Positions 40-33,568 of a stretch of DNA of 35,466 bases are shown one piece after another. Made by a program: the position numbers and the translations under genes. Origin of the DNA: Candidatus Hydrothermarchaeota archaeon (lineage in GTDB: Archaea > CAYFZR01); assembly GCA_046760505.1 (NCBI GenBank), contig JBHIEG010000021.1, positions 1-35,466 of the forward strand, read 5' to 3'. A model generated the notes under the pieces. That model saw only the letters and a list, made by a program, of their open reading frames with translations, searched no databases and was not told the DNA's origin. The stretch's first letter is position 1. Each line of letters begins with the position of its first letter.

Positions 40-834
40 GTGAATCAATTGACGACACTAGACAGAATACCAGAAAAGGTAGTCTTTTTTGAAGGATGCG
101 TAACCTCTAGAAGAATGCACCATCTTCGTTTTGCGATTCGTTTTTTGCTTGAAAATTATGGTATCGATTACATCACATTAGACCCAAGGGAACAGTGTTG
201 TGGCTCACCCATATTCAGAGCTGGAGCAGCAGATATTGCAGAAAGACAATTACTTCACAATCTTAGAGAAGTTGAGAAGACCGGTAGGAATGTCGTAGTT
301 ACTGCATGCCCAGGATGTGGATCTACGCTAAAATCTGATGAAGCCGAGAAGAGGGGCATTGAGGTAGTCCATATAATGGAAATCTTCATGAAGTTAGCCG
401 AAGAAGGAAAGCTGTTTGATGGTAACTTTAGAACTCTAGAGACTACTGTAACAGCGCATTTCCCATGTCATTTGATTAGAGGCATGGACGTTGATTGTTT
501 TAAAGGATTCAAAGAAATTTTCGCCCAAATGCCGGGGGTGGAATATATTGAATTAGAAGAGGCAAATGCTTGTTGCGGTGCTGGAGGAGGAGTAAGAGCA
601 TCACAGATTGAGTTGGCGAAAAAAATCAGAGAAAGAAAAATCAACTTCATTAAAGAGACAGGGGCTAAACTATGTGTGACAATATGTCCTTTCTGTGAGA
701 TTCATATTGGAGAGGGTTTAAAGGAAGCAGAACTGCCCGTAAGGATAATGTCATTACCTTTCCTTCTTGCCTTACTAAATAATAACTTTAAGACAAAGAT
801 AGATGAAATAGTGGAAAGAGAAAGGAGTGCGTGA
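40..834 (+). CDS. Two-CCG-domain Fe-S oxidoreductase subunit (TfrB C-terminal/HdrD/GlpC-like)
   Basis: Motifs FFEGC...QCCGSP...TACPGC and HFPCH...ACCGAGGG...ICPFC are two CCG domains. True start may be TTG at 49, after AGGTGA. Confidence 0.85.
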   Translation: MNQLTTLDRIPEKVVFFEGCVTSRRMHHLRFAIRFLLENYGIDYITLDPREQCCGSPIFRAGAADIAERQLLHNLREVEKTGRNVVVTACPGCGSTLKSDEAEKRGIEVVHIMEIFMKLAEEGKLFDGNFRTLETTVTAHFPCHLIRGMDVDCFKGFKEIFAQMPGVEYIELEEANACCGAGGGVRASQIELAKKIRERKINFIKETGAKLCVTICPFCEIHIGEGLKEAELPVRIMSLPFLLALLNNNFKTKIDEIVERERSA

Positions 835-1198
835 TCAAATGGAGTCCTTGATTTACACCTTGTTTCTCCTGTTTTCATTGCCCTTTGCCTATTACTACTT
901 AAAGACGACTATCTTTCCAGATCACATTGGAAAAATTAAAAGATTCGAAGGGTATGGAAAAATGAAAGAGTGCGAAGTAACATGCGACACCTCAATTCAA
1001 GAAATATCAGACGGTAAAATGTCTATAAAGGTGTTGGTTGAGCTCTCGAATGGTGGGGAGATAAGGTGTGAAATGAGCCCTTGCAACATATGCTTGGAGA
1101 AGATGAAGGAAGGAGATCTTGTAGGTGTAACAAAACTGGGATCAAGATATATCGCCCAACCACTACTGTTAAAGAGGGTGTATGGAAGATGCCAGTAA
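827..1198 (+). CDS. Small membrane-anchored hypothetical protein with Cys motifs
   Basis: N-terminal hydrophobic helix, then a soluble domain with CEVTC and CEMSPCNIC; overlaps both neighbours. Confidence 0.75.
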   Translation: MRDQMESLIYTLFLLFSLPFAYYYLKTTIFPDHIGKIKRFEGYGKMKECEVTCDTSIQEISDGKMSIKVLVELSNGGEIRCEMSPCNICLEKMKEGDLVGVTKLGSRYIAQPLLLKRVYGRCQ

Positions 1199-1866
1199 CG
1201 ATAATAGGATACATAGCATTAGTACTGTTCTTTGGGATCATATTGGCTTCGCTCATGGGAATTATTCCTCAATCAAGACTACCCATTCAGTCTGCCCTCA
1301 TTGTGGCTACGCTTGTGATAGTGTTGTTAGCTTTCATCGGTAATTTCATGGGTTACTCGGTAGAATTGATTTTCCCAACCGATCTTCTTGGACAGATTAT
1401 AATCCACCCAATCACCGCTTTGATGGCAGGATTCTTTGTTGCTGGCGCTCTAGAGGCTTCTGGTGGATTTGAAGCAGCAGCTGACTTATTGGACAGGATG
1501 GCAAAGACAAGGCTCGGGTTACCAGGCACTGCCTGCATTCTTGCAAACATGCCTACGATAATTAGCATGCCGTGCGGCAGGATATTGGGCGCAGCCTTGA
1601 TGCCTGCTGCACTTTACTTTGGATGGATTTTGGCAGAGAAAACAGGAAAAAAGGAATTAATTGGAGTGCTTGTATTTGCATTTATCGTTAACGCTGCAGC
1701 ATCTTGTGGACCATCTCCGCTAGGAGGAATCGGCATGATTGGAGAAGGAATGATAGCAATTCCCCTAACTTCACTTCAAGATCCTCAGCAGACAGGGATA
1801 ATGCTGGCTACAGGAGTTTGCGCACTCGTGATGAGATTCGTTACGCCATTGCTACCTGCTGAATAG
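1189..1866 (+). CDS. Half-size ion-transporter (IT/CitMHS/DASS-like) membrane protein A
   Basis: Start reassigned to ATG 1189 (MPVTII, GAGGGTG upstream), 225 aa, highly hydrophobic; GAL..SGG, MPCGR and NAAASCGPSPLGG segments resemble one IT-superfamily repeat. Confidence 0.7.
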   Translation: MPVTIIGYIALVLFFGIILASLMGIIPQSRLPIQSALIVATLVIVLLAFIGNFMGYSVELIFPTDLLGQIIIHPITALMAGFFVAGALEASGGFEAAADLLDRMAKTRLGLPGTACILANMPTIISMPCGRILGAALMPAALYFGWILAEKTGKKELIGVLVFAFIVNAAASCGPSPLGGIGMIGEGMIAIPLTSLQDPQQTGIMLATGVCALVMRFVTPLLPAE

Positions 1867-1877
1867 GAGGCTTAAGA

Positions 1878-2606
1878 ATGGAGGAAAGATTAAAAATCGG
1901 ATACTTCTCATTCTTCTTCTTCATGATTGTCTTAGCTGCTGCTATCATACTCTACAGTAAGATGGGAGTGAAAGTGCCTCCAATCCAGACTATTCTTATA
2001 TTCATAGCAATAGTGATAATGCTGGTAAGCAAGGCAAGAATAGAAGATCTGTTAGCTGGAGTGATTTTACACCCAATAATGGCAATGTCTGCAGGCTTTC
2101 TCATAGCCGGAGCACTGGGGCTAGCGGGAGGATTTGATGCACTACTAGACCTATGCTGGAGGATTGCAGGATTCATAGACAGCATTTTCGCACCACTAAA
2201 GGGTCTTGAAATATCCTTTCTTGGCCTAGAGAAAGGAGTATCTCTTGGATTACCGTTTGTGTCTGTTATAATAGTCAACATACCAACAATCACCCCCATG
2301 CCATGTGGAAGGATAATAGGCGCCGCAGTGATTCCTGGTGTATATTACTTTGCAAAGGCGGTGGTAGGCGCCACAGGAAATACCTTGGCATTACCTGTTT
2401 TGGTAGCAGCCTTCATTGTAAACGCCGCTGCCTCATGTGGACCTTCTCCGTTAGGAGGAGTGGGGGGCATAGGCGAGGGCAACCTAGGAGTGGAGATAGG
2501 CTCATCTGGCCCATCTCAGGAGACCGGAATAATAATAGCAACCGGGGTTACGGCCCTCGTTATAGCGTTCGTTACTGGATATGCCCTAATTCCATATTTA
2601 AAGTAA
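1878..2606 (+). CDS. Half-size ion-transporter (IT/CitMHS/DASS-like) membrane protein B, paralogue of A
   Basis: GGAGG SD; shares HPI.A..AGF..AGAL...GGF, N.PTI..MPCGRI.GAA..P and AFIVNAAASCGPSPLGG.G.IGEG with the upstream protein. Confidence 0.7.
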   Translation: MEERLKIGYFSFFFFMIVLAAAIILYSKMGVKVPPIQTILIFIAIVIMLVSKARIEDLLAGVILHPIMAMSAGFLIAGALGLAGGFDALLDLCWRIAGFIDSIFAPLKGLEISFLGLEKGVSLGLPFVSVIIVNIPTITPMPCGRIIGAAVIPGVYYFAKAVVGATGNTLALPVLVAAFIVNAAASCGPSPLGGVGGIGEGNLGVEIGSSGPSQETGIIIATGVTALVIAFVTGYALIPYLK

Positions 2607-2619
2607 AGGAGGTAATGAA

Positions 2620-2763
2620 ATGAATTTCCCTCTCTTGTTTACAATGGTCGGTGCAGGAACTTTGACTGGAATAATGATAAATATAGCTTTAGGCTACAGC
2701 CCATTTAATATTGGCGGAATACTTGGTGGTGCAGTAACTGGATTGCTAATGTTCATACTTTAG
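2620..2763 (+). CDS. 47-aa Gly-rich membrane peptide (absent from ORF track)
   Basis: AGGAGGT SD at 2607-2613, ATG 2620, MNFPLLFTMVGAGTLTGIMINIALGYSPFNIGGILGGAVTGLLMFIL*, fills the intergenic gap. Confidence 0.75.
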   Translation: MNFPLLFTMVGAGTLTGIMINIALGYSPFNIGGILGGAVTGLLMFIL

Positions 2764-2772
2764 GTGTCTTCC

Positions 2773-3504
2773 ATGGAAATAGAGCCTATCAGAAGGGTGT
2801 CCCAGTTAGTAGTACTATTCGTAGTCCTCGTAAGCCTAGGTGCCGTGTGCTCCAGGGATCCGTTCTTCATGCTACAAACTATATTCGCAAGGGGGAGTGT
2901 CCTTCCTACCTTAATCCTAACTTCTCTCGGAGGACTCATCCTTTTTACACTAATATTTGGAAGGGCATTTTGCAGTTGGGTATGTCCCTATGGAACAATA
3001 CTCGATATATTGAATGGTATAACTTCTAAGAAGTACAAGATACCTGAATTTTTGGAGTACAGATCTTTAAAGTATTCTGTGCTTGGAGGTTTTTTGATAA
3101 CTGCTTTTGTATATGGATATACCACCTTCTGCACTGTTTGTCCTGCCGGAGTATTTTTCAGATCTGTTGAGGTTGCCACGGTAGCGCCCGTGTTTCCATT
3201 TATGCTTCTACTAGCCGCATTTGTTTTTGCCATATTCTATCACGGCAGGGCTTGGTGCAGATATCTATGTCCGCTAGGTGCTTTTATCTCCTTGGTTAGT
3301 AAATTTAGCCTTACGAGATTGAAAGTTGATAGCGAAAAATGTAGAGCATGCCTCTTATGCCAAAGGACTTGTCCCATGGATTTGTTGGTAGTAGAGGATA
3401 GCATATGGAAAAATAGAAACTCTGTACCTCCAGAAGAATGCATAAGATGTGGTGACTGCATTAACGTTTGTCCCGCTGGGGCAATAGAATTTGGAAGGTT
3501 ATAA
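2773..3504 (+). CDS. NapH/MauN-family membrane 4Fe-4S protein
   Basis: TM helices, GRAFCSWVCP, FCTVCP and RAWCRYLCP motifs, two C-terminal CxxCxxCxxxCP motifs; ATG 2773 follows AGGTG. Confidence 0.88.
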   Translation: MEIEPIRRVSQLVVLFVVLVSLGAVCSRDPFFMLQTIFARGSVLPTLILTSLGGLILFTLIFGRAFCSWVCPYGTILDILNGITSKKYKIPEFLEYRSLKYSVLGGFLITAFVYGYTTFCTVCPAGVFFRSVEVATVAPVFPFMLLLAAFVFAIFYHGRAWCRYLCPLGAFISLVSKFSLTRLKVDSEKCRACLLCQRTCPMDLLVVEDSIWKNRNSVPPEECIRCGDCINVCPAGAIEFGRL

Positions 3505-4235: not shown

Positions 4236-4250
4236 TAAGTTTTATATTAT
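4236..4250 (+). promoter_or_regulatory. Candidate TATA box for cytochrome gene
   Basis: TTTTATAT about 35 bp upstream of ATG 4281, with GAGGGG SD just before the start. Confidence 0.4.
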
Positions 4251-4280
4251 GTTACGATTACATCCCTAACGAGGGGTTGT

Positions 4281-4979
4281 ATGAGGAAGATATCAATAGG
4301 TTTAGTTTTCATAACAATTCTTCTGTTCATAGCGATAATACCTGCGATCTCAGAGGAGAAGCCAGAGAACCCTGAAGAAGTAAACTATACGAAGTCTTTT
4401 TGTTACGGATGTCATGACGTCGCTCACAATGTTCATGCAACAAAGGCGGTAGATTGTTCTCAATGTCATGGAAATCTTCCAAAGGTATTCATTCCTGAAT
4501 GCGTAAGGTGTCATACCCCGCCAATCCACAAAATCCACGAGGCTCCTGCCAGAGAAGACTGCACGAAATGTCACGGCGAAATAGCAGGGATACACGCCAA
4601 GTTAGGGGAAGTTATATGCTCGAGATGTCATGGGACAGATGTGGCGAAAATACACGGAGGAGAGACTAGTTGTGAAAGGTGCCATGGATCTGTTCCAAAC
4701 ATAGTGAAACCGCAAGCAAAAGAGGGAGAGATAGTCTGTCAGGCTTGTCACCAAGATAACCTGCTCACAATTCATGAAGAAATTGCTACTGGTAAAGAAA
4801 AGTGTTACAAGTGTCACGGGACCGTTCACTTCATTCACGCAAAAACGAGACTAGAAAAAGAAGGGAAAAAAGGACCCAGTTGCGTAACGTGTCACAGGGA
4901 AGTTGAGATCACCATACCTGAATGCACTCAGTGTCATAAGCCCGATATCATACATGCTCTCAGCAGACTTGTAGGATAG
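4281..4979 (+). CDS. Exported/membrane-anchored decaheme cytochrome c
   Basis: N-terminal MRK plus hydrophobic signal; 10 CxxCH motifs and 10 additional His. Confidence 0.9.
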   Translation: MRKISIGLVFITILLFIAIIPAISEEKPENPEEVNYTKSFCYGCHDVAHNVHATKAVDCSQCHGNLPKVFIPECVRCHTPPIHKIHEAPAREDCTKCHGEIAGIHAKLGEVICSRCHGTDVAKIHGGETSCERCHGSVPNIVKPQAKEGEIVCQACHQDNLLTIHEEIATGKEKCYKCHGTVHFIHAKTRLEKEGKKGPSCVTCHREVEITIPECTQCHKPDIIHALSRLVG

Positions 4980-5000
4980 GGAAACCCTCTTATTTTTTTT
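4976..5000 (+). terminator. Possible oligo-T terminator
   Basis: Short GGG-AAA-CCC hairpin followed by T8 at 4993-5000. Confidence 0.4.
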
Positions 5001-6027: not shown

Positions 6028-6864
6028 ATGGAGATGGTAGTAAAAGTTGGCGTAGTTAAATGTGGAGCCATTGCTACTTCTGCGATGGTGGATCTTTTAT
6101 TAGACGAGAGAGCTGATAGAAAGGATATTTCTACTAGGGTAGTGGGTAGTGGCGCAAAGATGGGTCCAGAAGAAGCGGAAGAAGCGGTTAATAAAATTTT
6201 AGAATTTGACCCTGACATAGTTATATACGTAGGACCAAATCCAACAGTTGCTGGACCAAAAAAGGCTAGAGAACTGTTATCCAAGTCTGGAAAGCCTTCT
6301 CTAATCATTGGAGATGCTCCAGGCGTAAAAGCAAAGGAGGAAATGGAGAAAGAAGGTCTTGGATACCTTCTTATAAGAGCAGATTCTATGATTGGGGCCA
6401 GAAGAGAATTTCTTGATCCTTCAGAGATGGCAATATTCAACGGAGACCTAATTAAGGTTTTAGCGTGCACTGGAGCCTTTAATATAGTTGTAGAGGCCAT
6501 AGATGGTATGATTGAAGCCGTGAAGGAAGGTAGAGGGGTAGAACTCCCAAGGATTGTTGTTACGAGAGATAAGGCCGTAGAAGCGGCTAACTTCAGCAAT
6601 CCGTATGCAAAAACCAAGGCCATGGCTGCTTATGAGATTGCCACAAAGGTCGCTGATTTAGATGTTGAGGGATGTTTTGTGGTACAGGACCCGAACAAGT
6701 ATATCCCAATCGTCTCAGCAGGTCACGAGATGCTTAGAATTGCTAGCAAATTAGCGGAAGAAGCAAGAGAAATAGAAAAATATGGTGACACCTTATTCAG
6801 AAGACCTCACTTACCGGAAGGTAAATTGGTGCAAAAGACAGAACTTATGAAAAAACCTGAATAG
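6028..6864 (+). CDS. mtd: F420-dependent methylene-H4MPT dehydrogenase
   Basis: DLLLDERADRKDI, GSGAKMGPE, DSMIGARREFLDP, NPYAKTKAMAA, DVEGCF; GGAGG SD. Confidence 0.97.
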   Translation: MEMVVKVGVVKCGAIATSAMVDLLLDERADRKDISTRVVGSGAKMGPEEAEEAVNKILEFDPDIVIYVGPNPTVAGPKKARELLSKSGKPSLIIGDAPGVKAKEEMEKEGLGYLLIRADSMIGARREFLDPSEMAIFNGDLIKVLACTGAFNIVVEAIDGMIEAVKEGRGVELPRIVVTRDKAVEAANFSNPYAKTKAMAAYEIATKVADLDVEGCFVVQDPNKYIPIVSAGHEMLRIASKLAEEAREIEKYGDTLFRRPHLPEGKLVQKTELMKKPE

Positions 6865-7510: not shown

Positions 7511-8071
7511 ATGCGAAAATCTGCCTTAGAAATATACGAGAGGCTCCAGACTATGGCAGATGACATAAAGCTAAGGTACAAGCACGGAGAGTTAGAAGAC
7601 TGGAGAGAGGTGGCTGCTTTCATTGATACCCTCAATAAATATGCTGACTCTCTTCCTCCAAGCATATTTGAGAGAATCAATGCAGGGCTTCCAGAAATCA
7701 TAGATAAGATGAGAGAAAGTACAAGAAAAGAATTAAAGGCTCTTAGAGAGAAAACTAGAGAATATCTCTCCCAGTATGAAAAAGGCGATATATCAGAGCA
7801 AGAATTTGAAGACATATTAACAGGAATTCTTGAAAAAAGAGACGAAATTACAGAGGGATTCATGGCTGGAGTAGCATCTGAATATCGGGAAATTGAAGAA
7901 GACGTAAACGTTTATAGGGAGAGAATAAAAAAGAAATTTTATGAAAGGAGAGAAGTTATAACCGATTTCTTGAGATTTGCCAACGATATTGAGGAGTATG
8001 TTAGCGGAGAAGAAAAATATCTCATAGCGGCTATTTTAACTCTGGTGAGTAAGTTAGAGGCACGTAAATGA
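7511..8071 (+). CDS. Hypothetical charged, probably helical protein
   Basis: AGGTGG SD; E/K/R-rich 186 aa; ATGA overlap with next gene. Confidence 0.75.
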   Translation: MRKSALEIYERLQTMADDIKLRYKHGELEDWREVAAFIDTLNKYADSLPPSIFERINAGLPEIIDKMRESTRKELKALREKTREYLSQYEKGDISEQEFEDILTGILEKRDEITEGFMAGVASEYREIEEDVNVYRERIKKKFYERREVITDFLRFANDIEEYVSGEEKYLIAAILTLVSKLEARK

Positions 8072-8880
8072 GGAATATCTTTAGAATGGCTATTTATGGA
8101 AAAGGGGGCATTGGCAAGTCGACTATTGCCTCCAATTTAGCGGTTTCATTCTCTCTTTTAAAGAAATCTACCCTTCTAATGGGATGCGACCCAAAAAGAG
8201 ATACAACCAGAAATCTCCTTTCTGGAAAATTGATTCCAACAGTGTTAGATAGTATACAAAAGAATAACAGTATTACTCTCGAAAAAGTAGTCCATAGAGG
8301 CTATAACGGCGTTTTTTGCGTTGAATCTGGAGGTCCAGAGCCAGGGATCGGTTGTGCTGGAAGGGGGATAATACTAGCAATCGAAACTCTTGAGAAGCTT
8401 GGCTTGTTCGACCAAGTTGACACGGTAATATTTGACGTGCTTGGAGATGTTGTTTGCGGAGGATTCGCGATGCCAATCAGGAAAGGCTATGCAAACTATG
8501 TTTACATCGTAATTTCTGGGGAATTCATGTCTTTATATGCTGCTAACAATATTTGTAAGGGTATCAAGCGTTTTTCGGATAGGAAAGGAGCATTACTAGG
8601 CGGATTGATATATAACTCTCGTGATGTTCCTAATGGTCTAGAAATATCAAAAAAATTTGCGAAAAAGATTGGAACAGATATTTTAGGAGAGATACCAAGA
8701 AGTAACTTAATATTAAAGGGAGATATCCAGAGAAAAACCGTATTTGAGGCTTTTCCAGATTCGGATATAGTGGAAAGGTTTAAGGAATTAACTCATAACA
8801 TCATGAAATCTTCTCCCACTACTCCAAAGCCGCTTTCCTATGAAGAACTGGAGGATCTTGCTATTCAAACTCTATTGTAG
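8068..8880 (+). CDS. Nitrogenase iron protein-like ATPase (NifH/NflH-CfbC family)
   Basis: [44 protein letters not shown]. Exact orthology unresolved. Confidence 0.9.
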
Positions 8881-17812: not shown

Positions 17813-18367
17813 TCACTCTTTTCCTATCAAGACTTCAGTAGCCTTTATAATCGCTTCTACTTTGTCTCCAGGTTTTATTCCAAGTTCTTCTATAGCCTCT
17901 CTTGTTATGATTGCAGTTATTATTGCAGGGGTTTTTATTTCAATTTTTACAGACGCAGTCACATCCTCTTTTTTAACGTCTTTAACAGTACCTTTCAACC
18001 TATTTCTAGCACTTAATTTCAAACCGCAAGCCTCCCAGTAATGTTCATCTTCTAGAATTCTATCTAAATAAATCCTGTACTTCCTGTACTCTTTCAAAAG
18101 TGCCTTTCCAAAATCTGTTAGTACAGTCCCCCCTCCTCCGTGTGCACCCCCTCGATAAGTTTTTACTATAGGGACACCCAATTTTTTTTCTAATTTAGAT
18201 AAATATCCCCATGCATGACGATAAGAAATATTTAGGGATTTTGCACTTTTTGAGAGAGAGCCTGTTTTCTCTATAGCCTCAAGCAAGCTTGCTATGCCCT
18301 CACCCATTATCGACGTGTGATCGGAGGATAACCAGAGCTTTGTTCTCGGGCGCAGTTTATCAGACAT
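17813..18367 (-). CDS. modE: ModE-family molybdate/tungstate-responsive regulator (wHTH + TOBE)
   Basis: LLEAIEKTGSLSKSAKSLNISYRHAW, RGG..GGGT.LT, SARNRLKG, AIIKATEV. Confidence 0.9.
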   Translation of the reverse strand: MSDKLRPRTKLWLSSDHTSIMGEGIASLLEAIEKTGSLSKSAKSLNISYRHAWGYLSKLEKKLGVPIVKTYRGGAHGGGGTVLTDFGKALLKEYRKYRIYLDRILEDEHYWEACGLKLSARNRLKGTVKDVKKEDVTASVKIEIKTPAIITAIITREAIEELGIKPGDKVEAIIKATEVLIGKE

Positions 18368-18454: not shown

Positions 18455-19426
18455 ATGAGTATTAATCACAAGTTCTCGGCCGGAATCCTCTTAATGTTTT
18501 TAATATTGGGATGCACCGCACCCTATGAGACAGCGAAAGTTAGAGAAAGACTAGTAGTATCCACAACCACAAGTTTGTTTGATACAGGGTTATTAGACGA
18601 TTTGGAGGAAAAATTCGAGAAGAAATATGACATTGACCTTTATTTCATATCGGTAGGGACAGGATTGGCCTTGCAGCACGCGAAAAGAGGAGATGCTGAT
18701 GTCGTTATTGTACATGCTCCGCCAGAAGAATTTGCCTTCATGAGGGAGGGAGGGGGCGTAAACAGAAAGATCATAGCATACAACTTCTTTGCGATTGTAG
18801 GACCTGAAAAAGACCCCGCTGGAATAAAAGGACTCAGCCCTATAGAAGCCATGAAAAAAATATATGAAACTGGGAACGTTGGTAAAGCACTCTGGATTTC
18901 CAGAGGAGATAAATCTGGTACGAACATCAAAGAAATAAAACTTTGGAGTCTTGCAGGTTTTGATCCTAACAAACTCAAAGAAAAACCATGGTATTTGGAA
19001 TCAGGAACCGGAATGGGGCGAACTCTTCTATTAGCAAACGAGAAGGATGCATACACCCTAGCTGATATGGGAACCTACCTCAAGTACTACAAGGATGGCA
19101 CTATCACGCTTGAACCTCTCGTTACACGAGGAAAAGAATTGTTAAACGTTTACAGCGTCATTGCTGTTAATCCGAGGATTCATCCGGATATCAACTTCTA
19201 TGGAGCCCTCGTGTTTGAAAAATTTCTGATATCAAACCAGACTCAAGAATTCATAGGTAAATTTGGAATGGAAAGTTATGGAAGGCCTCTCTTTTATCCT
19301 GCAGTGCAATTAATTAAAGAGGGCAAAGATGGCGAATTGGTAGAATGGATAAAAGATTATGCATTCTTCAATAACACCGAGTGTCCTGAGAAATATCGCT
19401 ACAATCAATCTGGACTGTATGGTTAG
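18455..19426 (+). CDS. tupA: Tungstate ABC transporter substrate-binding protein
   Basis: Signal with LGC lipobox-like site, STTTS motif, GTG.AL, VHAP, SRGDKSGT, GMG.TL. Confidence 0.93.
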   Translation: MSINHKFSAGILLMFLILGCTAPYETAKVRERLVVSTTTSLFDTGLLDDLEEKFEKKYDIDLYFISVGTGLALQHAKRGDADVVIVHAPPEEFAFMREGGGVNRKIIAYNFFAIVGPEKDPAGIKGLSPIEAMKKIYETGNVGKALWISRGDKSGTNIKEIKLWSLAGFDPNKLKEKPWYLESGTGMGRTLLLANEKDAYTLADMGTYLKYYKDGTITLEPLVTRGKELLNVYSVIAVNPRIHPDINFYGALVFEKFLISNQTQEFIGKFGMESYGRPLFYPAVQLIKEGKDGELVEWIKDYAFFNNTECPEKYRYNQSGLYG

Positions 19427-19454
19427 AGTAAATCGGTTTACCAATTAAAACACA

Positions 19455-20171
19455 GTGATAGAAATGGTGGTAGAGATCCTAGAAGGTTTAAAAAGCGCTT
19501 TGGAACTAATAGTTTCAGGAGATCCAGTTGTGGTGAAAATCGCCCTGAGATCAATTTATGTCTCTGGGATGGCTACACTTCTCTCCTCCACATGGAGCAT
19601 TCCTATAGGGATGCTAGTAGGTATGAAAGCGTTTAAAGGCAGACGCATTGTGAAAGGTTTTTTTAACGCCTTGCTTGGAATGCCTACTGTAGCCTTAGGT
19701 CTTATACTTTACATCTTTTTGTCTAAATCTGGTCCATTCGGTTTTCTTAACCTTCTCTATACTCCGGAAGGAATAATAATCGGTCAGGCAATCCTCATCA
19801 CACCCATAATGGTAAGCTTTTCAATAAGCGCCATCGAATCCATCGAACCCGAGATAATGGAACTTGCCAGAACCTTGGGAGCATCAGAAATATATGCATC
19901 CCTCACCGTCCTTAGAGAGGCGATTAGTGGCGTAATACTGTCTATAATAGCCAGTTTTAACAGAGCAATCGCGGAGTTGGGCATAGCTCTAATGGTAGGA
20001 GGAAATATCAGAGGAAAGACCAGGGTCTTAACCACAGCGATAGCCCTTGAAACTACTAGGGGAGAAATAGTACTTGGAATAGCACTAACAGTGATACTGA
20101 TCACTTTTGTTTTCGGATTGAGCCTTGCAATAAATCTTGTTCAGAGGGTTGACATTGGAAAATATCGTTGA
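19455..20171 (+). CDS. tupB: Tungstate ABC transporter permease
   Basis: LSKSGPFG, ARTLGAS, RAIAELG..LMVGGNI...TRVLTTAI. Confidence 0.92.
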   Translation: MIEMVVEILEGLKSALELIVSGDPVVVKIALRSIYVSGMATLLSSTWSIPIGMLVGMKAFKGRRIVKGFFNALLGMPTVALGLILYIFLSKSGPFGFLNLLYTPEGIIIGQAILITPIMVSFSISAIESIEPEIMELARTLGASEIYASLTVLREAISGVILSIIASFNRAIAELGIALMVGGNIRGKTRVLTTAIALETTRGEIVLGIALTVILITFVFGLSLAINLVQRVDIGKYR

Positions 20172-20877
20172 ACTAAAAAATGTCTCCAAAAAATATGGTG
20201 AGATTACTGCTCTGAGAGAGATAAGCCTAGAAATAAGAAGAGGTGAAATCTTCTCCATCATGGGTATAAACGGTGCTGGAAAAACCACTTTACTCAGAAT
20301 AATAGCCGGAATCGATAAACCAACCTCTGGGGAATTTTACTACAACAAAAGATTGGTTGAAAATGATTACAGAAAAGAGGTAAGGAGAAATTGCACTATG
20401 GTCTTTCAAAAGTGTGTGCTTTTTAAAACCTCTGTTTACAAGAACGTTGCGTACGGACTTAAATTTAGGGGCTATTCAGGAAAAGAAATCGAAATAAAAG
20501 TCAGAGAAGTACTAAAAAAATTGAGGCTATCCGGGTATGAAAACAGACAAGCGAGAAGTTTATCCGGGGGAGAACAGCAGAGAGTATCCCTTGCCAGAGC
20601 CTTGGTCTTAGAACCAGAGCTTCTACTCCTGGATGAGCCTACCCTAAATCTTGATCCTAGTAACACGGCCATTGTAGAAAATGTTATAAAAGACTTGAGG
20701 GGTGAAACAACTATTGTTTTAGCGACCAACGATCTTTATCTGGCAAGAAACATATCTGATACGATAGCCCACATCCTTGATGGAACAATAATTGAGACAG
20801 GTACTCCAGAGGAAATTTTTAAAAATCCAAAGGACGAAAGAACCAGAAGGTTTATCAAAAAAGAGATAGTCTTCTAA
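20155..20877 (+). CDS. tupC: Tungstate ABC transporter ATPase
   Basis: GINGAGKT, LSGGEQQR, LLLLDEPT; probable TTG start at 20155 after GAGGG. Confidence 0.9.
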   Translation: MENIVELKNVSKKYGEITALREISLEIRRGEIFSIMGINGAGKTTLLRIIAGIDKPTSGEFYYNKRLVENDYRKEVRRNCTMVFQKCVLFKTSVYKNVAYGLKFRGYSGKEIEIKVREVLKKLRLSGYENRQARSLSGGEQQRVSLARALVLEPELLLLDEPTLNLDPSNTAIVENVIKDLRGETTIVLATNDLYLARNISDTIAHILDGTIIETGTPEEIFKNPKDERTRRFIKKEIVF

Positions 20878-24005: not shown

Positions 24006-24772
24006 CTCTTTTTTTCCCAAAAAACATTAAAGAAGAGACATTCTTCCGGAGAGATAAACATGTCGTTCTTAGGATTATCAGTTAGCCTTACTTTCGCACC
24101 CTTAATAAGAACCGCTGGGATGCATTCATCGGATTCGCCCATCAAGAGTTGAGCCGCACTGGTTAAGTCATCGGCTATAGCCCTGAAGGTGATCTTTAAT
24201 TCCCTACCGTAAAGATCTTTTTTGCCTCTGTTATCTTCAACAGGCTCTAAACCTGAGACTGCTAATGCTCCACCAACAACTCCCTTTTTCAGTGGTTGTG
24301 TCCTGCTGTCCCCTATTATCACTCCAATCTTTTTTCCTGTCTTGTTTTCAATTTTTTCCCTTATTTTATTAGCCGTATACTGTATATTGTCAGGAAACAG
24401 TATCACATGACCCAAAGGTGCATTAGAATGATCTACACCCGCGTTAGCAATCAAAAAACCATTTTTCTTTGTGAGCAAACAGTATTTGACCCCCCCATAC
24501 ACTTCATCTGCCTCATTCAATATTACCTCAACCACCCTGGGATCCATTTCGTATTCTTTTGCCAATTTTTCTGCTTCTTTTGAAAATGAAACATCTTCTA
24601 ATCTAACTATTCTTGATTGAGTTAGCGATACTGCTGTTTCCGCTATAACAAGGACGTCTCCATCTTCTATTTCTATTTTTTCTCTGCTTAATGCCTCCAT
24701 TATCTTATCAACGAGGTCATCCTTGATTTTAATTAAACCAGTCCTTATGGGAAGAATTTTTATTTCATTCAT
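24002..24772 (-). CDS. cofE: CofE-family gamma-glutamyl ligase (F420-0 ligase or folate FolC2)
   Basis: DGDVLVIAET, ANAGVDHSN, IIGDS, DLYGREL, ADDL..AAQLLMGE..E..P. Confidence 0.85.
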   Translation of the reverse strand: MNEIKILPIRTGLIKIKDDLVDKIMEALSREKIEIEDGDVLVIAETAVSLTQSRIVRLEDVSFSKEAEKLAKEYEMDPRVVEVILNEADEVYGGVKYCLLTKKNGFLIANAGVDHSNAPLGHVILFPDNIQYTANKIREKIENKTGKKIGVIIGDSRTQPLKKGVVGGALAVSGLEPVEDNRGKKDLYGRELKITFRAIADDLTSAAQLLMGESDECIPAVLIKGAKVRLTDNPKNDMFISPEECLFFNVFWEKKS

Positions 24773-25974
24773 TCAATATCCTCTAATTCATCCAATAAAG
24801 ATGCGATGATAGGGAGATCAAAGGCTTGCTTTTTTAGTTTCTTCTTTAAACTACTGATTTGTGCTGATGTGCCAAATATAATTATACTTAAGTTATTGCC
24901 TCCTCTTAACGCAACTTCTGGTATGGCGGCCTCTCCCCCCCTTGCTAGGATTTCTTGCTTGAGGATCAAAGCCTCCTTATGAGTAACGTTCTCTATCAAT
25001 ATAGTCCTGAAAGATGCCTTCTCTTTCATAATTCTTATACCAGTCTCACCGACTCCTATCTTTTCCATTAAAGCAGCAATATCTTCTTTTTTTGAAATCC
25101 AATTCAGAAGTGTTGCCTTTTTCTCTTTATTCTCCACCAAAATTGGATCTTTCCTCAGAAGCTCGGCAATCTTAATCGAGTGCAAAGTTTCTCTCACATC
25201 ATGAGTCCTCACGATGTGGGCCCCCTCATAAACGGCTATGGCAGTTGCGCCCAAAGAACCATAGAGTCTTTTCTCAGGCGGACCCACATTTAATATTTCG
25301 TCTATAAAAGATTTTCTGGAAATTGCCACTAAAATTGGCTTCCTTAACAACTTAAGAGAACTTAAACCTTTAATGATCTCTAAGTTGTATTCATAAGTCT
25401 TTTCTTGAATCCATCTTCCAATTCCGGGATCTATTATGATGTCATTTGGATCAACGCCCTTGGACTCAATTAAATTTATGGTCTCTTCTAGGCAGTTCTT
25501 AATTTCTGATAGTGTTAGCAGATCTCCTGGTCTTTTTTTAGAAGCCATTATTATAAGGGGACATTTATAATTTAAAATTACATCTAGCATCTTTTCATCT
25601 TTTTTAAGACCACTCACATCGTTAATTATACTTGCTCCAATTTTTAAGGCTCTTTCGGCGATTATGCTGCTTTGTGTATCCACAGATATAGGAACATCTA
25701 TTTCTTTGACCATTTTTTTTAAAACAGGAATCAATCTCTCTTCTTCTTTTTCGATGGATATCTCCTTCCTGCCCGGTGCAGTAGAAGCAGCACCCAAATC
25801 TATCATTTCTGCTCCATTTTCTATCATGTTTATTGCTCTATTCAGAGCATCTTCTTCGTTCCTTACAATAGAACCCTCATAAAATGACTCTGGACTTAGA
25901 TTTATAACCCCCATTATTCTAACCGGATGGAAATCTCCTAACTTTATACCACAGATCTCTGCGTCTATGATCAC
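24769..25974 (-). CDS. folP: Dihydropteroate synthase with C-terminal extra domain
   Basis: MGVINLSPESF, ISVDT, INDVSG, IDPGIG, SRKSF, VRTHDV; extra ~130 aa containing LILKQEILARGGEAA. Confidence 0.92.
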   Translation of the reverse strand: MIIDAEICGIKLGDFHPVRIMGVINLSPESFYEGSIVRNEEDALNRAINMIENGAEMIDLGAASTAPGRKEISIEKEEERLIPVLKKMVKEIDVPISVDTQSSIIAERALKIGASIINDVSGLKKDEKMLDVILNYKCPLIIMASKKRPGDLLTLSEIKNCLEETINLIESKGVDPNDIIIDPGIGRWIQEKTYEYNLEIIKGLSSLKLLRKPILVAISRKSFIDEILNVGPPEKRLYGSLGATAIAVYEGAHIVRTHDVRETLHSIKIAELLRKDPILVENKEKKATLLNWISKKEDIAALMEKIGVGETGIRIMKEKASFRTILIENVTHKEALILKQEILARGGEAAIPEVALRGGNNLSIIIFGTSAQISSLKKKLKKQAFDLPIIASLLDELEDIE

Positions 25975-25975
25975 T

Positions 25976-26584
25976 TTACCACCTGATCTTTACTCTTCGT
26001 CCTTCGATTTCTAATTTGTCTTCTAAGAAGAGTTTAACTGCAAGAGGATATAGTTTGTTTTCTTCTTTGAGTATTCTATCAGCGAGGGTCTCTGGTGTAT
26101 CGTCTTCTTTTACTTCAACTGCTTTTTGTAGAATTATAGGTCCTGTATCAACTCCTTCATCTACAAAATGGACCGTACATCCACTCACCTTTACGCCGTA
26201 TTCAAGAGCCTGTTTCTGAGCGTTTAATCCAGGAAATGAGGGGAGCAAGGCAGGATGGATATTCATTATCCTCCACTTAAATTCTTTTACTACTTTGGGT
26301 GATAAAATGCGCATGTATCCGGCTAGCAATACTAGGTCGCATTCGTATTTTTTTAGAACTCTAAGTATTTCATCATCAAATTCTTCTTTTGTTTTGAACT
26401 TATAGGGATCTATGAATACAGCAGGAATTCCATGTTTTTTTGCTCTTTTTAATGCTAAAGCATCTTTATTATCGCTTATTACAACGGAAAGTTCAGCATT
26501 TTTTATTTCTTTCTTTTCTATAGAATCTATGATTGATTGTAAGTTTGTACCCCTCCCTGAGGCTAGAACTCCAATTTTTTTCAT
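25976..26584 (-). CDS. purN: Phosphoribosylglycinamide formyltransferase
   Basis: LASGRGTNLQ, LAGYMRIL, NIHPALLPSFPG, GCTVHFVD..VDTGPII. Confidence 0.97.
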   Translation of the reverse strand: MKKIGVLASGRGTNLQSIIDSIEKKEIKNAELSVVISDNKDALALKRAKKHGIPAVFIDPYKFKTKEEFDDEILRVLKKYECDLVLLAGYMRILSPKVVKEFKWRIMNIHPALLPSFPGLNAQKQALEYGVKVSGCTVHFVDEGVDTGPIILQKAVEVKEDDTPETLADRILKEENKLYPLAVKLFLEDKLEIEGRRVKIRW

Positions 26585-27438
26585 TTTTTCTCGTTTAAAA
26601 TTTTTTTTGCGGCTATTATGGTATTCTTTAGAACCATTGCAACGGTCATAGGGCCAACTCCACCTGGAACTGGTGTTATGAAAGAAGTCTTTTGATATAC
26701 ATCATCGAAGTCCACGTCTCCATAAACTTTTTTATCTACTCTATTTATTCCCACATCGAATATGACCACACCATCTTTTACCATGTCCTTCTTTATTAAT
26801 CCTTTCTTGCCTGCGCCAACGATCAGTATATCTGCTTCTCTTGTGTGTTTTTTTAGATCCTCCGTCATGATATGACATACGGTTACGGTGGCATTTCTGT
26901 TAAGAAGCATCATCGCCATAGGTTTCCCTACTAGGTTACTGTGCCCAACGACCACGACCTGTTTTCCTGCTACATCGATGTTTAGTTTATCTAGCAGGTA
27001 AATTATGCCTTTTGGAGCGCATGGAACTAGCTCTTCCTCACCCAAAAAAAGATTTCCAATGTTTAAAGGATTTAATCCGTCTACGTCTTTTTCCGGAGAA
27101 ATAGTTGCCATCACGGTATTCGGGTTTATTTGTTTCGGCAATGGGAGCTGTACTATGATCCCATGAATATTTTTTTTCTCATTAAGTTTTTTGATAAGTT
27201 TTGTTAACTCCTCCTCTGATGTACTCTCCGGGAGCCTGTATATTTCCTTGTGCATTCCCACTTCTTCGCAGGCTTTTTCTTTCATCTTTACGAAGATCTT
27301 TGATGGCGGATGCTCTCCTACCAAGATAACTGCCAGACCAGGACGAATACCGTATTTTTCTTCTATATATTTTACATCCAAGGATACCTCTTTCTGAATT
27401 TCATTAGCATATTTTACCCCGTCAATAATCTCTGGCAT
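26581..27438 (-). CDS. folD: Methylene-THF dehydrogenase/cyclohydrolase
   Basis: VQLPLP, KDVDG, S.LVGKP, DVGINR, TPVPGGVGPMT. Confidence 0.97.
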   Translation of the reverse strand: MPEIIDGVKYANEIQKEVSLDVKYIEEKYGIRPGLAVILVGEHPPSKIFVKMKEKACEEVGMHKEIYRLPESTSEEELTKLIKKLNEKKNIHGIIVQLPLPKQINPNTVMATISPEKDVDGLNPLNIGNLFLGEEELVPCAPKGIIYLLDKLNIDVAGKQVVVVGHSNLVGKPMAMMLLNRNATVTVCHIMTEDLKKHTREADILIVGAGKKGLIKKDMVKDGVVIFDVGINRVDKKVYGDVDFDDVYQKTSFITPVPGGVGPMTVAMVLKNTIIAAKKILNEKK

Positions 27439-27449
27439 GAAAGAACCTC

Positions 27450-28721
27450 TCAGAGCTCTTTATATCTTTGAAGCAATTTCTCGTATATAGGAAATCTACC
27501 ACATAGGTCTATAACTTTTTTCTTTACCTCTTCTTTCGTTCTTTCATCATCTTTGTTCTCAAGGACCCTATTGATCAACTCACTGATCTCGATCATTTCT
27601 CTTTCTTTCATTCCCCTTGTTGTTATAGCAGGAGTGCCTACCCTGATGCCACTAGTAATCCTTGGAGGTCTTTTGTCAAAAGGTATCGCATTTTTGTTAA
27701 CGATTATCCCCGCATCTCCTAAAGCATCCTCAGCTTCCTTTCCGGTCATGTTTTTTTCAGTTAGATCAATTAAAATGAGATGATTATCGGTTCCTCCCGA
27801 AATCAATGAGTAACCGCGCTCTATCAACGCATTTGCCATGGTTTTAGCATTTTTAACGATTTGTTTTTGGTATTCCTTGAATTCATTCGTCATGGCTTCT
27901 TTGAATGCGACCGCCTTGGCCGCTATAACATGCTCTAAAGGACCACCCTGTATGCCTGGAAACAATGTTCTGTCAATTTCTTGGGCGAATTCCTCTTTGC
28001 AGAGAATCATACCTCCTCTTGGTCCTCGAAGGGTTTTATGAGTAGTTGTGGTAACAAAATCAGCGTATGGAATGGGGCTCTGATGTAGTCCTGCTACGAT
28101 TAGGCCTGCGATGTGCGCGATATCAGCCATGTGATACGCGCCGACTTCATCTGCTATCTCTTTGAATAAGGAGAAGTCTATCTCCCTTGGATAAGCGCTT
28201 GCCCCTGAGACAATCATATCTGGTTTGTATTTTTTTGCGAGTTTTCTAACTTCATCATAGTCTATAGTCTGAGTTTCTCTCGATACTCCGTAGTGCACCA
28301 CCTTGAAGAACTTGCCTGAAAAATTTACTGGACTTCCATGAGTTAAGTGACCACCGTCAGATAACCTCATCCCCATTATGGTATCTCCCGTATTTAAAAC
28401 CGAAAAATAGACAACCATATTTGCTTGCGATCCAGAATGAGGCTGTACGTTTGCATGTTCTGCATTAAAAATCTTTTTTGCCCTTTCTATTGCAAGTTCT
28501 TCCGCTTCATCAACCCATTCACACCCTCCGTAGTATCTTTTTCTTGGATATCCTTCAGCATATTTGTTCGTCATCACACAACCCTGTGCCTCTAAAACCG
28601 CCTCGCTAGCATAGTTTTCAGATGCTATAAGGTTTAATTGATATATTTGTCTCTCTATATCTTTTTTAATTACTTTTGCTATGTCTGGATCTATATTTTG
28701 GAGAAAACTCAATTTTTTCAC
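27450..28721 (-). CDS. glyA: Serine hydroxymethyltransferase (bacterial/THF type)
   Basis: [50 protein letters not shown]. Confidence 0.97.
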
Positions 28722-31223: not shown

Positions 31224-31760
31224 TTAGTACAGCAAGCCTATGACAATTAGAAGAGAGGCAATGCCAACAATATCTCCAATTGAGGCTACTATTGGGATGA
31301 AAACGTTATCAGGGTCGTATCCCTTTAAATAAGAGAGGAATATTATCAGAATGGTTAAAACTATCATGGAACTCACCGTTATGACACCCGCTAAAACCGT
31401 GATCTTGACGAAAATTTTTACTGTAACTCCAGACTCTTTTTGGGCGTAAACAATGTACCCCAAGAATCCCAGAGTGATAGATGAAATAATTCCTATAAAT
31501 AGAGCCACCATAGAGTCCTTTACTGCTAAATTCCTTAAATCTAAACCCAAATGCATGAATGATGATATTCTAGATCCCAAGACGCTTCCAATACTTCCAG
31601 CTAGATTTATCATTGGGGGAACAAGGATTATGATTCCTGGAATACTGATGAATAATTCTTTTTTACTCTCTAGCATCCCACCAGACGCAAGATCAAGAAA
31701 CATTGACATTATAAGGAAAGGTATGCTTTCCTTGAGAATTCTTTTTACCGTATATACCAT
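31224..31760 (-). CDS. MgtE/SLC41 membrane domain protein (second half)
   Basis: P......G..G...GSR.SS..HLG and DPDN...P......GD motifs. Confidence 0.85.
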   Translation of the reverse strand: MVYTVKRILKESIPFLIMSMFLDLASGGMLESKKELFISIPGIIILVPPMINLAGSIGSVLGSRISSFMHLGLDLRNLAVKDSMVALFIGIISSITLGFLGYIVYAQKESGVTVKIFVKITVLAGVITVSSMIVLTILIIFLSYLKGYDPDNVFIPIVASIGDIVGIASLLIVIGLLY

Positions 31761-32318
31761 TCAAAGCACCCTTACTAGCCAAATCGCAGGAAATAATGAG
31801 AATACCGTTATGATGTCTCCTATGGTCGCTAATAAAGGTGCAATGAAATTGTCTGGATTTAATCCATGTGAATACCCAAAGAAAGATATAAAAATCGCCA
31901 GAAAAGTGAGAAAGAAGCCTGAAACAATCCCTGCAATCAGAGATATTAATATTAGAGTCAGGATTCCAGCACTGGGAAGGTTTAGGAGTAAGCATGCATA
32001 GTGTGCGAAGATACCTACGAAGATGGACATGAAAAGGGTTTGCGAGAGTGACGCATAAATATTAACATTCAGTACTTTGCTTCTCCAAACGCTAGGATCG
32101 ATAAGACCTAAATGCAGAGATGTGGTGAGACGAGATCCTAATGAGCCGTATATGTTCCCCCTGATACACATTACTGGGGGTAATAAGACAAGCAGACCTG
32201 GAACCGAGACTATCTCTTTCTGCATGTGACTTAGACTGTTTCCGGCTACCAGTTCTAACGTAAGGCATAACAAGATGATTGGGAGCCCCTCTTTTAGATA
32301 TTTCTTCGCACTTATCAT
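31761..32318 (-). CDS. MgtE/SLC41 membrane domain protein (first half)
   Basis: RGNIYGSLGSRLTTSLHLG, NPDN...P.....GD. Confidence 0.85.
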   Translation of the reverse strand: MISAKKYLKEGLPIILLCLTLELVAGNSLSHMQKEIVSVPGLLVLLPPVMCIRGNIYGSLGSRLTTSLHLGLIDPSVWRSKVLNVNIYASLSQTLFMSIFVGIFAHYACLLLNLPSAGILTLILISLIAGIVSGFFLTFLAIFISFFGYSHGLNPDNFIAPLLATIGDIITVFSLFPAIWLVRVL

Positions 32319-32418
32319 TCATATCGCCTCACCGGTTCCAGAGGATCTTCGTTGAATACTGTATCCGAAACCCACAACTATTTAAATGTTAGTACCATAG
32401 AAAATTCTGGTAGAATCC

Positions 32419-33000
32419 GTGACCACATCAAAAACTGTCAAAGAACTCCTTGTAGAGATGAAAGATGTGTCTGAACTCATGATAGACTTAGCCTATTCTG
32501 CTTTACTCCTAAACAACAAAGAAATCGCTAGTGAAGTAGAAAGACTGGAAAAGAAAATGGACTCTTTAAAATATGAAATAAGGATAATGGCTATGTTAGC
32601 AGCGAGGACTCCAGAAGAAGCCGAGCAACTGAGCGGTATCCTTCATGTTGCTGCCTCTGCAGAGGCTATTTCTAATGCGGCAAAGGACATTGCTGATGTT
32701 GTTTTAAGAGGTTTAGCTAGTCATCCATTAATAGAAGAGGCTCTAAGTGAGACAGAAGAAATAATAAAGATTTTTGAGGTAAAAGAAAACTCAATCTTGG
32801 TAGGAAAAAGTTTAGGTGAATTAAGACTTGCAACAGAAACAGGAATGTATGTGATAGCCATAAGAAGAGGAAATGAGTGGATATATGGGCCAGACAAAGA
32901 CGTTGTGATTCAAGCCGGAGACAGTTTGATCGCAAGGGGGACGGAAACAGGTTCTGAGTTGTTAAGTGAAATCTCCAGTGGAGAGAGAAGATGGTTTTAG
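32419..33000 (+). CDS. PhoU + TrkA-C domain protein
   Basis: EMKD.SELM.DLAYSA (PhoU-like) and GKSLGELRL...TGMYVIAIRRG (TrkA-C). Confidence 0.88.
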   Translation: MTTSKTVKELLVEMKDVSELMIDLAYSALLLNNKEIASEVERLEKKMDSLKYEIRIMAMLAARTPEEAEQLSGILHVAASAEAISNAAKDIADVVLRGLASHPLIEEALSETEEIIKIFEVKENSILVGKSLGELRLATETGMYVIAIRRGNEWIYGPDKDVVIQAGDSLIARGTETGSELLSEISSGERRWF

Positions 33001-33056
33001 ACTTTCTGAATCTAATAGTAAAAAAGACAAAAAATAAAAGATAAGAATAATTTAAG

Positions 33057-33542
33057 ATGTTTAATTTAAAGAATAACTTAAGGATGACTACAGGGATTAA
33101 TGAAGGATCGATGAATATGAAATTTGGCCATCAGTTTTATGAGGAAATAGACTTGGAGGATGAAGAGGATATAGTAGATATACTAACACTCGAAGATGCT
33201 GAGGAGATAATAGAAAGATTGGTCAGGAAGAGGATCCTGATATATATGGGGAAAGAATACGTCTTAAGTAAATGCGCCTTGGACAAGATTCTAGATTTTG
33301 CGAACAGAAACGACTATGTAGAAGAAGATCTCTTCGAAAGAATACTTAGAGGAATCAAGTGCCTCTTGGATGAATCCTTTACGGGGGCTTCCAGCCTAGA
33401 CGAAAGCGAAATTATTCGATATGTTGTAATTATCTTTGATTTAGGAAAATTTACCGAGATGTTTCCTACAATAAGAGAGAGTTTTGAGTCTATTTGCCCC
33501 AACATCTCTCAAGATTCTTTTGAAGACTACTCGGATACTTGA
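33057..33542 (+). CDS. Acidic hypothetical protein (start uncertain)
   Basis: Open 161-aa frame filling the gap; IIERLVRKRILI...YVLS weakly resembles a winged helix. Confidence 0.55.
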   Translation: MFNLKNNLRMTTGINEGSMNMKFGHQFYEEIDLEDEEDIVDILTLEDAEEIIERLVRKRILIYMGKEYVLSKCALDKILDFANRNDYVEEDLFERILRGIKCLLDESFTGASSLDESEIIRYVVIIFDLGKFTEMFPTIRESFESICPNISQDSFEDYSDT

Positions 33543-33568
33543 TTATTTCTCAACTTGATCGTAGATTA

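Follow-up and report, generated by a model that had tools for sequence, protein, structure and literature searches.

A 35,466-nucleotide stretch of contig JBHIEG010000021.1 from a Candidatus Hydrothermarchaeota archaeon (assembly GCA_046760505.1), analysed at its full length and referred to below as the window, encodes a compact c-type cytochrome with ten heme-binding motifs in 232 amino acids. There is good support for regarding this decaheme protein as a multiheme cytochrome that is exported. Beyond that, we consider it probable that the protein is secreted and non-catalytic, that every one of its hemes is held between two histidines (bis-His ligation), and that it serves as a ten-heme electron relay or reservoir outside the cytoplasmic membrane. 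It represents the short form of a family whose long forms carry eleven hemes and, in most cases, a C-terminal membrane anchor.

The ten CxxCH motifs of the decaheme protein start at residues 41, 59, 74, 94, 113, 131, 153, 175, 201 and 215, and all 20 cysteines of the protein lie within them. Half of its 20 histidines fall outside the motifs (H49, H52, H83, H86, H105, H125, H165, H183, H186 and H225), most of them preceded by Ile or Val. The start codon provides the only methionine. An earlier note on this DNA had claimed ten CxxCH motifs and exactly ten other histidines, and the residue count confirms it; the exactness of the match is specific to the window protein, as its ortholog and its paralog (described below) each have one additional, non-conserved histidine. 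Six-frame translation of the 35.5-kb window yields 12 CxxCH motifs in total, and the concentration of ten of them in one open reading frame (ORF) excludes a chance origin. The protein passes the cut-offs of two cytochrome models in Pfam, Cytochrom_c3_2 (PF14537; 50.3 bits against a cut-off of 25) and Cytochrome_C7 (PF14522; 47.2 bits against 24.8, with the best stretch at residues 169-220), and stays below the cut-off of the paired-CxxCH model.

Homologs of the decaheme protein form a small family. Out of 215 candidates, a word-based search yielded four proteins, namely the query, an ortholog with 79% identity, a paralog with 69% identity and one weak match. In an exhaustive phmmer search of 1.84 billion representative sequences, 68 matches passed E<=1e-3, of which 13 passed E<=1e-10 and four E<=1e-30. 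In a profile search, 58 clusters of long forms scored 307-405 bits. The short forms, three in number (the window protein together with its ortholog and paralog), reached 261-279 bits, followed by the next match at 70; the window protein itself aligns over residues 1-230 with 279 bits. Judged by these scores, the family is sharply bounded. A scan of one genome per species confirmed 23 loci, one of which is the 79% ortholog in a metagenome-assembled genome (MAG) labelled 'uncultured archaeon'. The remaining 22 loci, with 33-39% identity, belong to Methanosarcinaceae, Methanosarcinales, the anaerobic methanotrophic (ANME) archaea of group ANME-2, Methanoperedens/Methanoperedenaceae and Methanobacteriota MAGs. 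Nineteen of these ORFs contain 11 CxxCH motifs, and 20 end in PG[FY] followed by a hydrophobic helix and a basic tail, the other two being cut by contig ends. Where source annotations exist, they read 'hypothetical protein' or 'cytochrome c3 family protein'. The comparison with ANME and Methanosarcinales multiheme proteins proposed in the earlier note yielded family members with full-length homology.

The pairing of motifs with additional histidines is a property of the family as a whole. Two alignments were used: A1, with 12 sequences of 34-40% identity, and A2, with 67 sequences of about 35% identity, comprising 64 long forms and the three short forms. In A1, the ten motifs and the ten distal histidines are invariant or at least 90% conserved; in A2, each of the ten distal columns is at least 97% histidine. 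The histidine following the second cysteine is kept at all ten motifs across the 67 homologs, with one sequence deviating at motif 10. Exactly 22 histidines, or two for each of 11 hemes, are found in 44 of the 67 sequences. All eleven heme sites are kept in A2, with site 1 appearing as CxxxCH in 26 sequences and site 3 as CxxxxCH in five; both are known variants of the heme-attachment motif. The main conserved stretch outside the heme motifs is I-V-K-P, of which I141, K143 and P144 are invariant in A1, and P144 is invariant and I141 and V142 are at least 90% conserved in A2. The near-invariance of the distal histidines and the absence of methionine for alternative ligation favour the all-bis-His coordination that had been claimed. 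They also point to a non-catalytic role, because no heme is left without a ligand partner.

Full-length homology of the window protein to the 11-heme, PGF-type anchored cytochromes of Methanosarcinaceae, ANME-2 and Methanoperedens (31-41% identity) includes the order and spacing of motifs 1-10, the ten distal histidines, the I-V-K-P motif, the duplicated triheme ends and the type of N-terminal signal. Unlike these relatives, the window protein carries a lysine-rich insertion of 11 residues after H186 and lacks residues ahead of H183, and its host belongs to a different lineage, in which neither McrA nor McrB was found. In the available part of PMC9012536, small multiheme cytochromes of ANME archaea with PGF-CTERM or other C-terminal anchors are presented as candidate extracytoplasmic electron carriers of unassigned function. 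The literature passages covered contained no specific description of the family; the cytochrome lists in the supplements of PMC9012536 and PMC10542353 may bear on it. Neither this literature nor the PDB provided a structure or an assigned role. We also considered whether the relatives might be the VhtC-linked 'Mco' cytochromes of PMC9012536, as described in its available part, and ruled this out: in the 22 loci, with neighbours named by eye, no cytochrome b or other partner was seen beside the family member.

The short forms lack an 11th heme motif, a histidine at position 115, a linker and a C-terminal anchor. An 11th CxxCH motif past the last conserved histidine is present in all 64 long forms (about 304-359 residues) and in none of the three short forms. 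Position 115, inside the heme-5 motif, is histidine in all 64 long forms (CxHCH) and arginine in all three short forms. A linker and membrane anchor end 62 of the 64 long forms and are absent from all short forms, which stop 7-8 residues past H225 (seven in the window protein); the missing linker is rich in Thr, Pro and Glu in the long forms. Pattern matching identifies the anchor as a PGF-type signal in 60 long forms, and two more have a PGL or SGF variant. The last two of the 64 stop after heme 11 with no anchor; loss of the anchor alone has thus also occurred within the family. Since the window protein lacks three of the four architectural features of the 11-heme family, it is best filed as a short-form variant.

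Besides the 11th motif's own histidine, position 115 is the sole histidine column conserved in long forms that has no counterpart in short forms. His115 of the CxHCH motif would for this reason be the distal ligand of heme 11, in which case the C-terminal heme would adjoin heme 5. The joint absence of heme 11 and His115 from the short forms counts as one evolutionary event and not as a statistic; it nevertheless amounts to a testable prediction about the wiring of the heme chain. The direction of the change was examined with trees built from 46 of the 64 long forms of A2, 21 cytochromes translated from the related loci, excluding L027, which a contig end truncates, and 10 distant proteins as outgroup. 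A free quick tree rooted on the outgroup nests the short clade among long forms, on a branch of length 2.4 and with unstarred support of 91-93. A tree keeping the 67 long forms together has a log-likelihood higher by 13.95, with a p-value of 0.757 in the approximately unbiased test (p-AU). As the trees conflict, loss of heme 11 in the short form and its gain in the long form are both possible. A more elaborate scenario, which we regard as a long shot, would see the family as a minimal branched wire, with heme 11 folded back onto the histidine of the heme-5 motif, and the short form, irrespective of which form arose first, as its branchless and anchorless counterpart in a deep-branching vent archaeon, a free ten-heme shuttle or self-assembling wire fed independently of quinones, for example by the HdrBC-like/NapH-like cluster nearby.

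The short form is a natural minimal version of the family: with ten hemes on about 208 residues and neither anchor nor linker, it would lend itself well to expression, structural work and electrochemistry. Its occurrence in a phylogenetically isolated vent archaeon extends the family beyond Methanosarcinales. In methane-oxidising archaea, small multiheme cytochromes rank with the most strongly transcribed proteins, according to the available part of PMC9012536.

The triheme blocks at the two ends of the protein resemble each other. Their local alignment score is 99, against 58 +/- 10.5 for shuffled sequences in which all cysteines and histidines were fixed in place, and none of 1000 shuffles reached 99. 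At the family level, hhalign of the N- and C-terminal profiles gives a probability of 99.1% and E 1.2e-18 over 42 columns, with weaker matches of either end block to the middle segment (E 2.4e-8 and 1.6e-7). The two tests agree with the module duplication proposed in the earlier note on the strength of the repeated first and last triheme blocks, and the match between family profiles assigns the duplication to the whole family and not to the decaheme protein alone.

The decaheme gene is under purifying selection. Relative to the 79% ortholog, its nonsynonymous divergence (dN) is 0.125 and its synonymous divergence (dS) 1.06, the latter near saturation, giving a dN/dS of 0.12; four adjoining genes have ratios of 0.04-0.12. 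The ortholog's region is fully syntenic with the window, and the neighbouring proteins are 80-95% identical, the cytochrome being the most diverged. The paralog within the host genome (229 residues, ten hemes) is encoded in an unrelated neighbourhood near a contig end (C29:17820-18509, minus strand; L044:5821-6510). In the sister genome (G001), no second copy with a strong match was seen. Contamination as the source of contig C29 was considered and rejected, because the contig carries single-copy genes and its guanine-cytosine (GC) content of 38.8% matches the genome mean of 38.2%. Among its 16 ORFs of at least 150 residues, close second copies elsewhere in the genome are limited to a 135-residue match (95% identity) and the cytochrome itself (69%); other second-copy matches are paralogs with 22-65% identity.

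Heme attachment to an exported chain calls attention to cytochrome c maturation, and the earlier note had proposed that the absence of ccm genes would refute the cytochrome. Maturation genes were found in the host genome, and this refutation fails. The genome (2.17 Mb in 142 contigs, 38% GC; computed completeness 100%, contamination 5.7%) contains a Ccm cluster in which CcmA exceeds its cut-off at 136.5 bits and is joined by CcmB, CcmC and a CcmE whose C-x-x-x-Y motif is the archaeal variant. A second cluster has a 634-residue CcmF beside weak NrfF/CcmH-like and weak DsbD/CcdA-like proteins. Another CcmF is split into divergently oriented halves of 323 (N-terminal) and 334 residues (C-terminal) at C14:8451-10475 (L037); split CcmF is reported for ANME and Ferroglobus in the available part of PMC9012536. 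Four host genes exceed the cut-off of PF01578, and a CcsA/CcmC-like gene lies within a cytochrome cluster on contig C2.

Fifteen host ORFs contain at least two CxxCH motifs, with up to 13 hemes in 302 residues, so the high heme density of the window gene is not unique. Two paralogous 12-heme proteins (292 and 293 residues) pass the NapC/NirT model with 34.3 and 32.9 bits (cut-off 24.1) and stand out as candidates for feeding in electrons at the membrane. This 12-heme pair, at C13:20390-23426 (L039), adjoins a 5-heme protein with a C-terminal helix. Elsewhere, an 8-heme cytochrome at C6:42598-43758 (L043:1599-2759) ends in Cys-Gly-Pro, a hydrophobic helix and KRRK, a terminus resembling the CGP-CTERM sorting signal of Thermococcales. 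A pattern scan found no PGF-type C-terminal signals in the host genome, and no recurrent motif emerged among 19 anchor-like host C-termini; the single exosortase-family protein of the host is not assignable to a known subtype. CdhD and CdhE of carbon monoxide dehydrogenase/acetyl-CoA synthase are present, and McrA, McrB and DsrA were not found in the genome. In the collection searched, the host phylum is represented by two genomes of one genus, and the 39 further genomes offered as relatives have nothing closer than the domain in common with it. The stretch itself occurs in four DNA runs from a single study, which carry the label hydrothermal vent metagenome, and three of these runs may be its source; none of the seven runs listed is an RNA run.

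The N-terminus of the decaheme protein resembles a Sec signal, in keeping with the export signal claimed for it, and aligns with the signals of long-form homologs, which end in the A-x-A type; the residue aligned at -1 is Ala or Ser in 55 of 64 sequences. Cleavage after A-I-S thus appears more likely than an uncleaved signal anchor. The protein is also more likely to be soluble outside the membrane than seated on it, because it has no recognisable C-terminal anchor. Of the location put forward in the earlier note, the outer face of the membrane, the extracytoplasmic side is retained, and attachment to the membrane seems less likely. The N-Y-T sequon mentioned there does exist, as a single N35-Y-T, and is at the level expected by chance; an N-x-S/T sequon occurs in two of three short forms and shows no conservation among long forms.

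From these features we infer a scheme for heme loading, bis-His ligation, signal cleavage, solubility, donors and acceptors. The protein would be exported by Sec, its signal probably cleaved, and ten hemes attached by Ccm to the chain of about 208 residues. At about 21 residues per heme, the loaded protein would weigh about 29 kDa. Each heme would be held axially by the histidine of its own CxxCH and by one of the ten conserved distal histidines, so that all ten hemes would be six-coordinate and none would offer a substrate an open site. The protein might then act as a short heme wire or an electron reservoir outside the cytoplasmic membrane, receiving electrons from membrane-bound cytochromes such as the two 12-heme NapC/NirT-type proteins of the host, and passing them on to surface cytochromes, minerals or partner cells.

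Other explanations of the same features differ in what the motifs bind, in whether a heme is catalytic, and in how the protein is deployed outside the membrane. The DnaJ CxxCxGxG zinc-finger model gives a weak match (E 0.0021), which could be read as a sign that the CxxC pairs bind zinc or iron-sulfur clusters; its 18.7 bits fall short of the cut-off of 32.7. This alternative is already disfavoured and deserves next to no credence: a histidine follows the second cysteine at ten of ten motifs and throughout the family, the protein has an export signal, two cytochrome models are passed, and the genome contains Ccm genes. Heme is accordingly preferred over the zinc that the earlier note had raised as an objection. 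We find it very improbable that the protein is a catalytic multiheme reductase or oxidase, acting at a specific heme on nitrogen or sulfur compounds or metals, for example. Its c3/c7-like modules are shared with multiheme enzymes, and the weak Pfam and PDB matches include enzyme-associated cytochromes; on the other hand, a conserved histidine matches every heme, there is neither a CxxCK nor a variant catalytic motif, no non-heme domain is present, and 21 residues per heme leave little space for a substrate pocket.

The protein might also polymerise head to tail into a conductive cytochrome filament, with one distal histidine donated across each subunit interface. Precedents for such nanowires are OmcS, OmcE, OmcZ and the archaeal tetraheme filaments. 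OmcS and OmcZ are discussed in the available part of PMC9012536. Ligation across subunits would still yield equal numbers of hemes and spare histidines, so the counts are compatible with a filament; the protein is anchor-less and extremely heme-dense, and giant cytochromes of the S-layer type are missing from the host, whose longest multiheme ORF has 441 residues. A PDB profile search, however, revealed no significant similarity to any filament cytochrome, with 7lq5, which we take to be OmcZ, aligned over only about 32 profile positions (E 4e-5), and most family members are lipid- or helix-anchored at the C-terminus, which suits a filament subunit poorly. We hold a filament to be distinctly improbable. 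Retention of the N-terminal hydrophobic stretch as a signal anchor would place the ten-heme domain on the outer face of the cytoplasmic membrane, where it could take up electrons straight from a carrier or complex in that membrane, much as CymA does. Both this topology and this mode of electron uptake seem unlikely to us, if less so than a filament. The uncharged run of the short forms (21 residues in the decaheme protein, 20-21 across the three) can span a membrane and exceeds the long-form median of 17, and an N-terminal anchor could compensate for the C-terminal one missing in short forms; a CymA-like action of small anchored ANME cytochromes is envisaged in the available part of PMC9012536. 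Against this, the run lies within the long-form range of 12-24, whose signals should be cleavable, small residues at -3 and -1 (A-I-S or T-I-S) align with the relatives' A-x-A ends, and the N-terminal NapC/NirT model (PF03264) matches two other host cytochromes and not the decaheme protein.

Several observations weigh against a soluble bis-His relay as we propose it, or leave parts of it without a counterpart. AlphaFold2 models are too poor to use (mean pLDDT, the predicted local distance difference test, of 44.5 with a 12-row alignment; 48.1 with 67 rows, at a predicted template modelling score, pTM, of 0.26). The ESM Atlas model has a pLDDT of 0.45, and all its structure rows have template modelling (TM) scores below 0.4. 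With models of such low pLDDT, heme geometry, partners and localisation remain inferred. No solved homolog was found in the PDB, where profile matches are piecemeal and motif-driven (Hmc at E 4.3e-10, MtrC at about 5e-7). The flanks of the gene encode TFE-alpha and cytoplasmic F420-linked enzymes and indicate no partner, and the conserved neighbours in the 22 related loci, named by eye, appear to be housekeeping genes (an RNA polymerase subunit, a ribosomal protein, an rRNA methylase and the like). Neither a NuoH/FpoH-type complex nor MqnA or MqnD was found in the host genome, which makes the electron route outward unclear. The host CcmB, CcmC, CcmE and CcmF, with E-values of 1e-15 to 1e-121, remain below the NCBIfam equivalog cut-offs.

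By analogy, the relay we favour would work most like the small periplasmic or surface heme wires of the c7/c3 and MtrA types. The nearest feature clusters in the ESM Atlas (0.90-0.91) are generic bacterial c7/c3 cytochromes. The window protein passes the Cytochrome_C7 and Cytochrom_c3_2 models and is built by repeating a triheme module. An HxxH doublet followed by three CxxCH within about 55 residues aligns with residues 17-70 of the triheme c7 protein PpcA (E about 0.07), and a Geobacter dodecaheme protein is reportedly built of c7-type repeats. Unlike c7/c3 cytochromes, the window protein has ten hemes in one chain and no possible Met ligand, and the similarity is weak and motif-driven. Shewanella MtrA, MtrC and OmcA likewise have ten hemes, and an extracytoplasmic electron conduit of this kind is the likely working analogy. 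The window protein is not a member of the MtrC/MtrF domain family (PF22113; 20.4 bits against a cut-off of 30) and only partially matches the MtrA chain of 6r2q (E 6.7e-4); in contrast to MtrA and MtrC, it has no porin partner, and its 232 residues compare with 333 in that MtrA chain and 671-700 in MtrC chains. NapC, NirT, NrfH and CymA are also small multiheme proteins with an N-terminal hydrophobic segment, and the NapC/NirT model (PF03264) gives no match to the window protein at E<=0.01.

Features of the decaheme gene and its surroundings; positions refer to the window
Feature	Position	Strand	Basis and remarks
Decaheme c-type cytochrome gene, 232 amino acids plus stop	4281..4979	+	ORF, motif counts, Pfam, dN/dS
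TATA-box-like TTTATATTA	4241..4249	+	32-40 nucleotides 5' of ATG; read from sequence; we take it to resemble the archaeal TATA consensus
Shine-Dalgarno-like GAGGGG	4271..4276	+	5-10 nucleotides 5' of ATG; putative, from sequence
Predicted Sec signal peptide, residues 1-24 (MRK, hydrophobic run, AIS/EE)	4281..4352	+	Sequence, alignment with relatives
N-terminal triheme module, residues 38-80, hemes 1-3, H49/H52	4392..4520	+	hhalign, pairwise score
Central tetraheme segment, residues 94-157, hemes 4-7; H105, H125, later H165	4560..4751	+	Alignment
Arg115 codon within heme-5 motif (CSRCH)	4623..4625	+	His (CxHCH) in long-form relatives
I-V-K-P motif, residues 141-144	4701..4712	+	Main conserved non-heme stretch; alignments A1, A2
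C-terminal triheme module, residues 172-221, hemes 8-10, H183/H186	4794..4943	+	hhalign, pairwise score, Cytochrome_C7
Eight-T run, possible archaeal oligo-T terminator	4993..5000	+	14 nucleotides past stop; read from sequence; role presumed by analogy with archaeal termination

The gene 3' of the decaheme gene begins with an ATG at 5005. Two genes 5' of the decaheme gene, a NapH/MauN-type membrane ferredoxin with two C-x3-C-P motifs is encoded at 2764-3504 (plus strand). NapH homologs are treated as possible quinol:cytochrome c links in the available part of PMC9012536; no evidence was found for coupling of the NapH-like ferredoxin to the decaheme protein. The ferredoxin gene ends a plus-strand cluster at 40-3504, which is cut by the contig start and continues upstream in L005:2274-2816, where a ferredoxin-like protein, named by eye from its cysteine motifs, is present in L005 only. 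At 40-834 the cluster encodes a CCG-domain protein resembling HdrB/TfrB, at 827-1198 a small protein, and at 1081-1866 and 1878-2606 a pair of paralogous membrane proteins that belong to no family and are mutually 43-45% identical. The cluster might specify a redox complex of the membrane; enzymes of the complex-I type were not found in the genome.

The rest of the window encodes Mtd, an FrhB/FpoF-like protein, CofE, FolD, GlyA and PurN. Methanopterin-linked Mtd and folate-linked FolD, GlyA, PurN and dihydropteroate synthase are located at 6028-6864 and 24769-28721, and from these genes the host seems to run both the methanopterin and the folate systems of one-carbon carriers. A NifH-family protein at 8068-8880 (plus strand) scores almost equally as nitrogenase iron protein (352.8 bits) and as CfbC of F430 synthesis (352.5 bits), both below the cut-offs, in a host with no detected McrA or McrB. 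Five consecutive ORFs of 105-193 residues at 31224-33872 have no NCBIfam match at E<=1e-5. A TupA/TupB-like tungstate transporter of the ATP-binding cassette type is encoded together with its ATPase at 18455-20877 (plus strand), with scores below the equivalog cut-offs, and is preceded on the opposite strand by a TOBE-domain regulator at 17813-18367.

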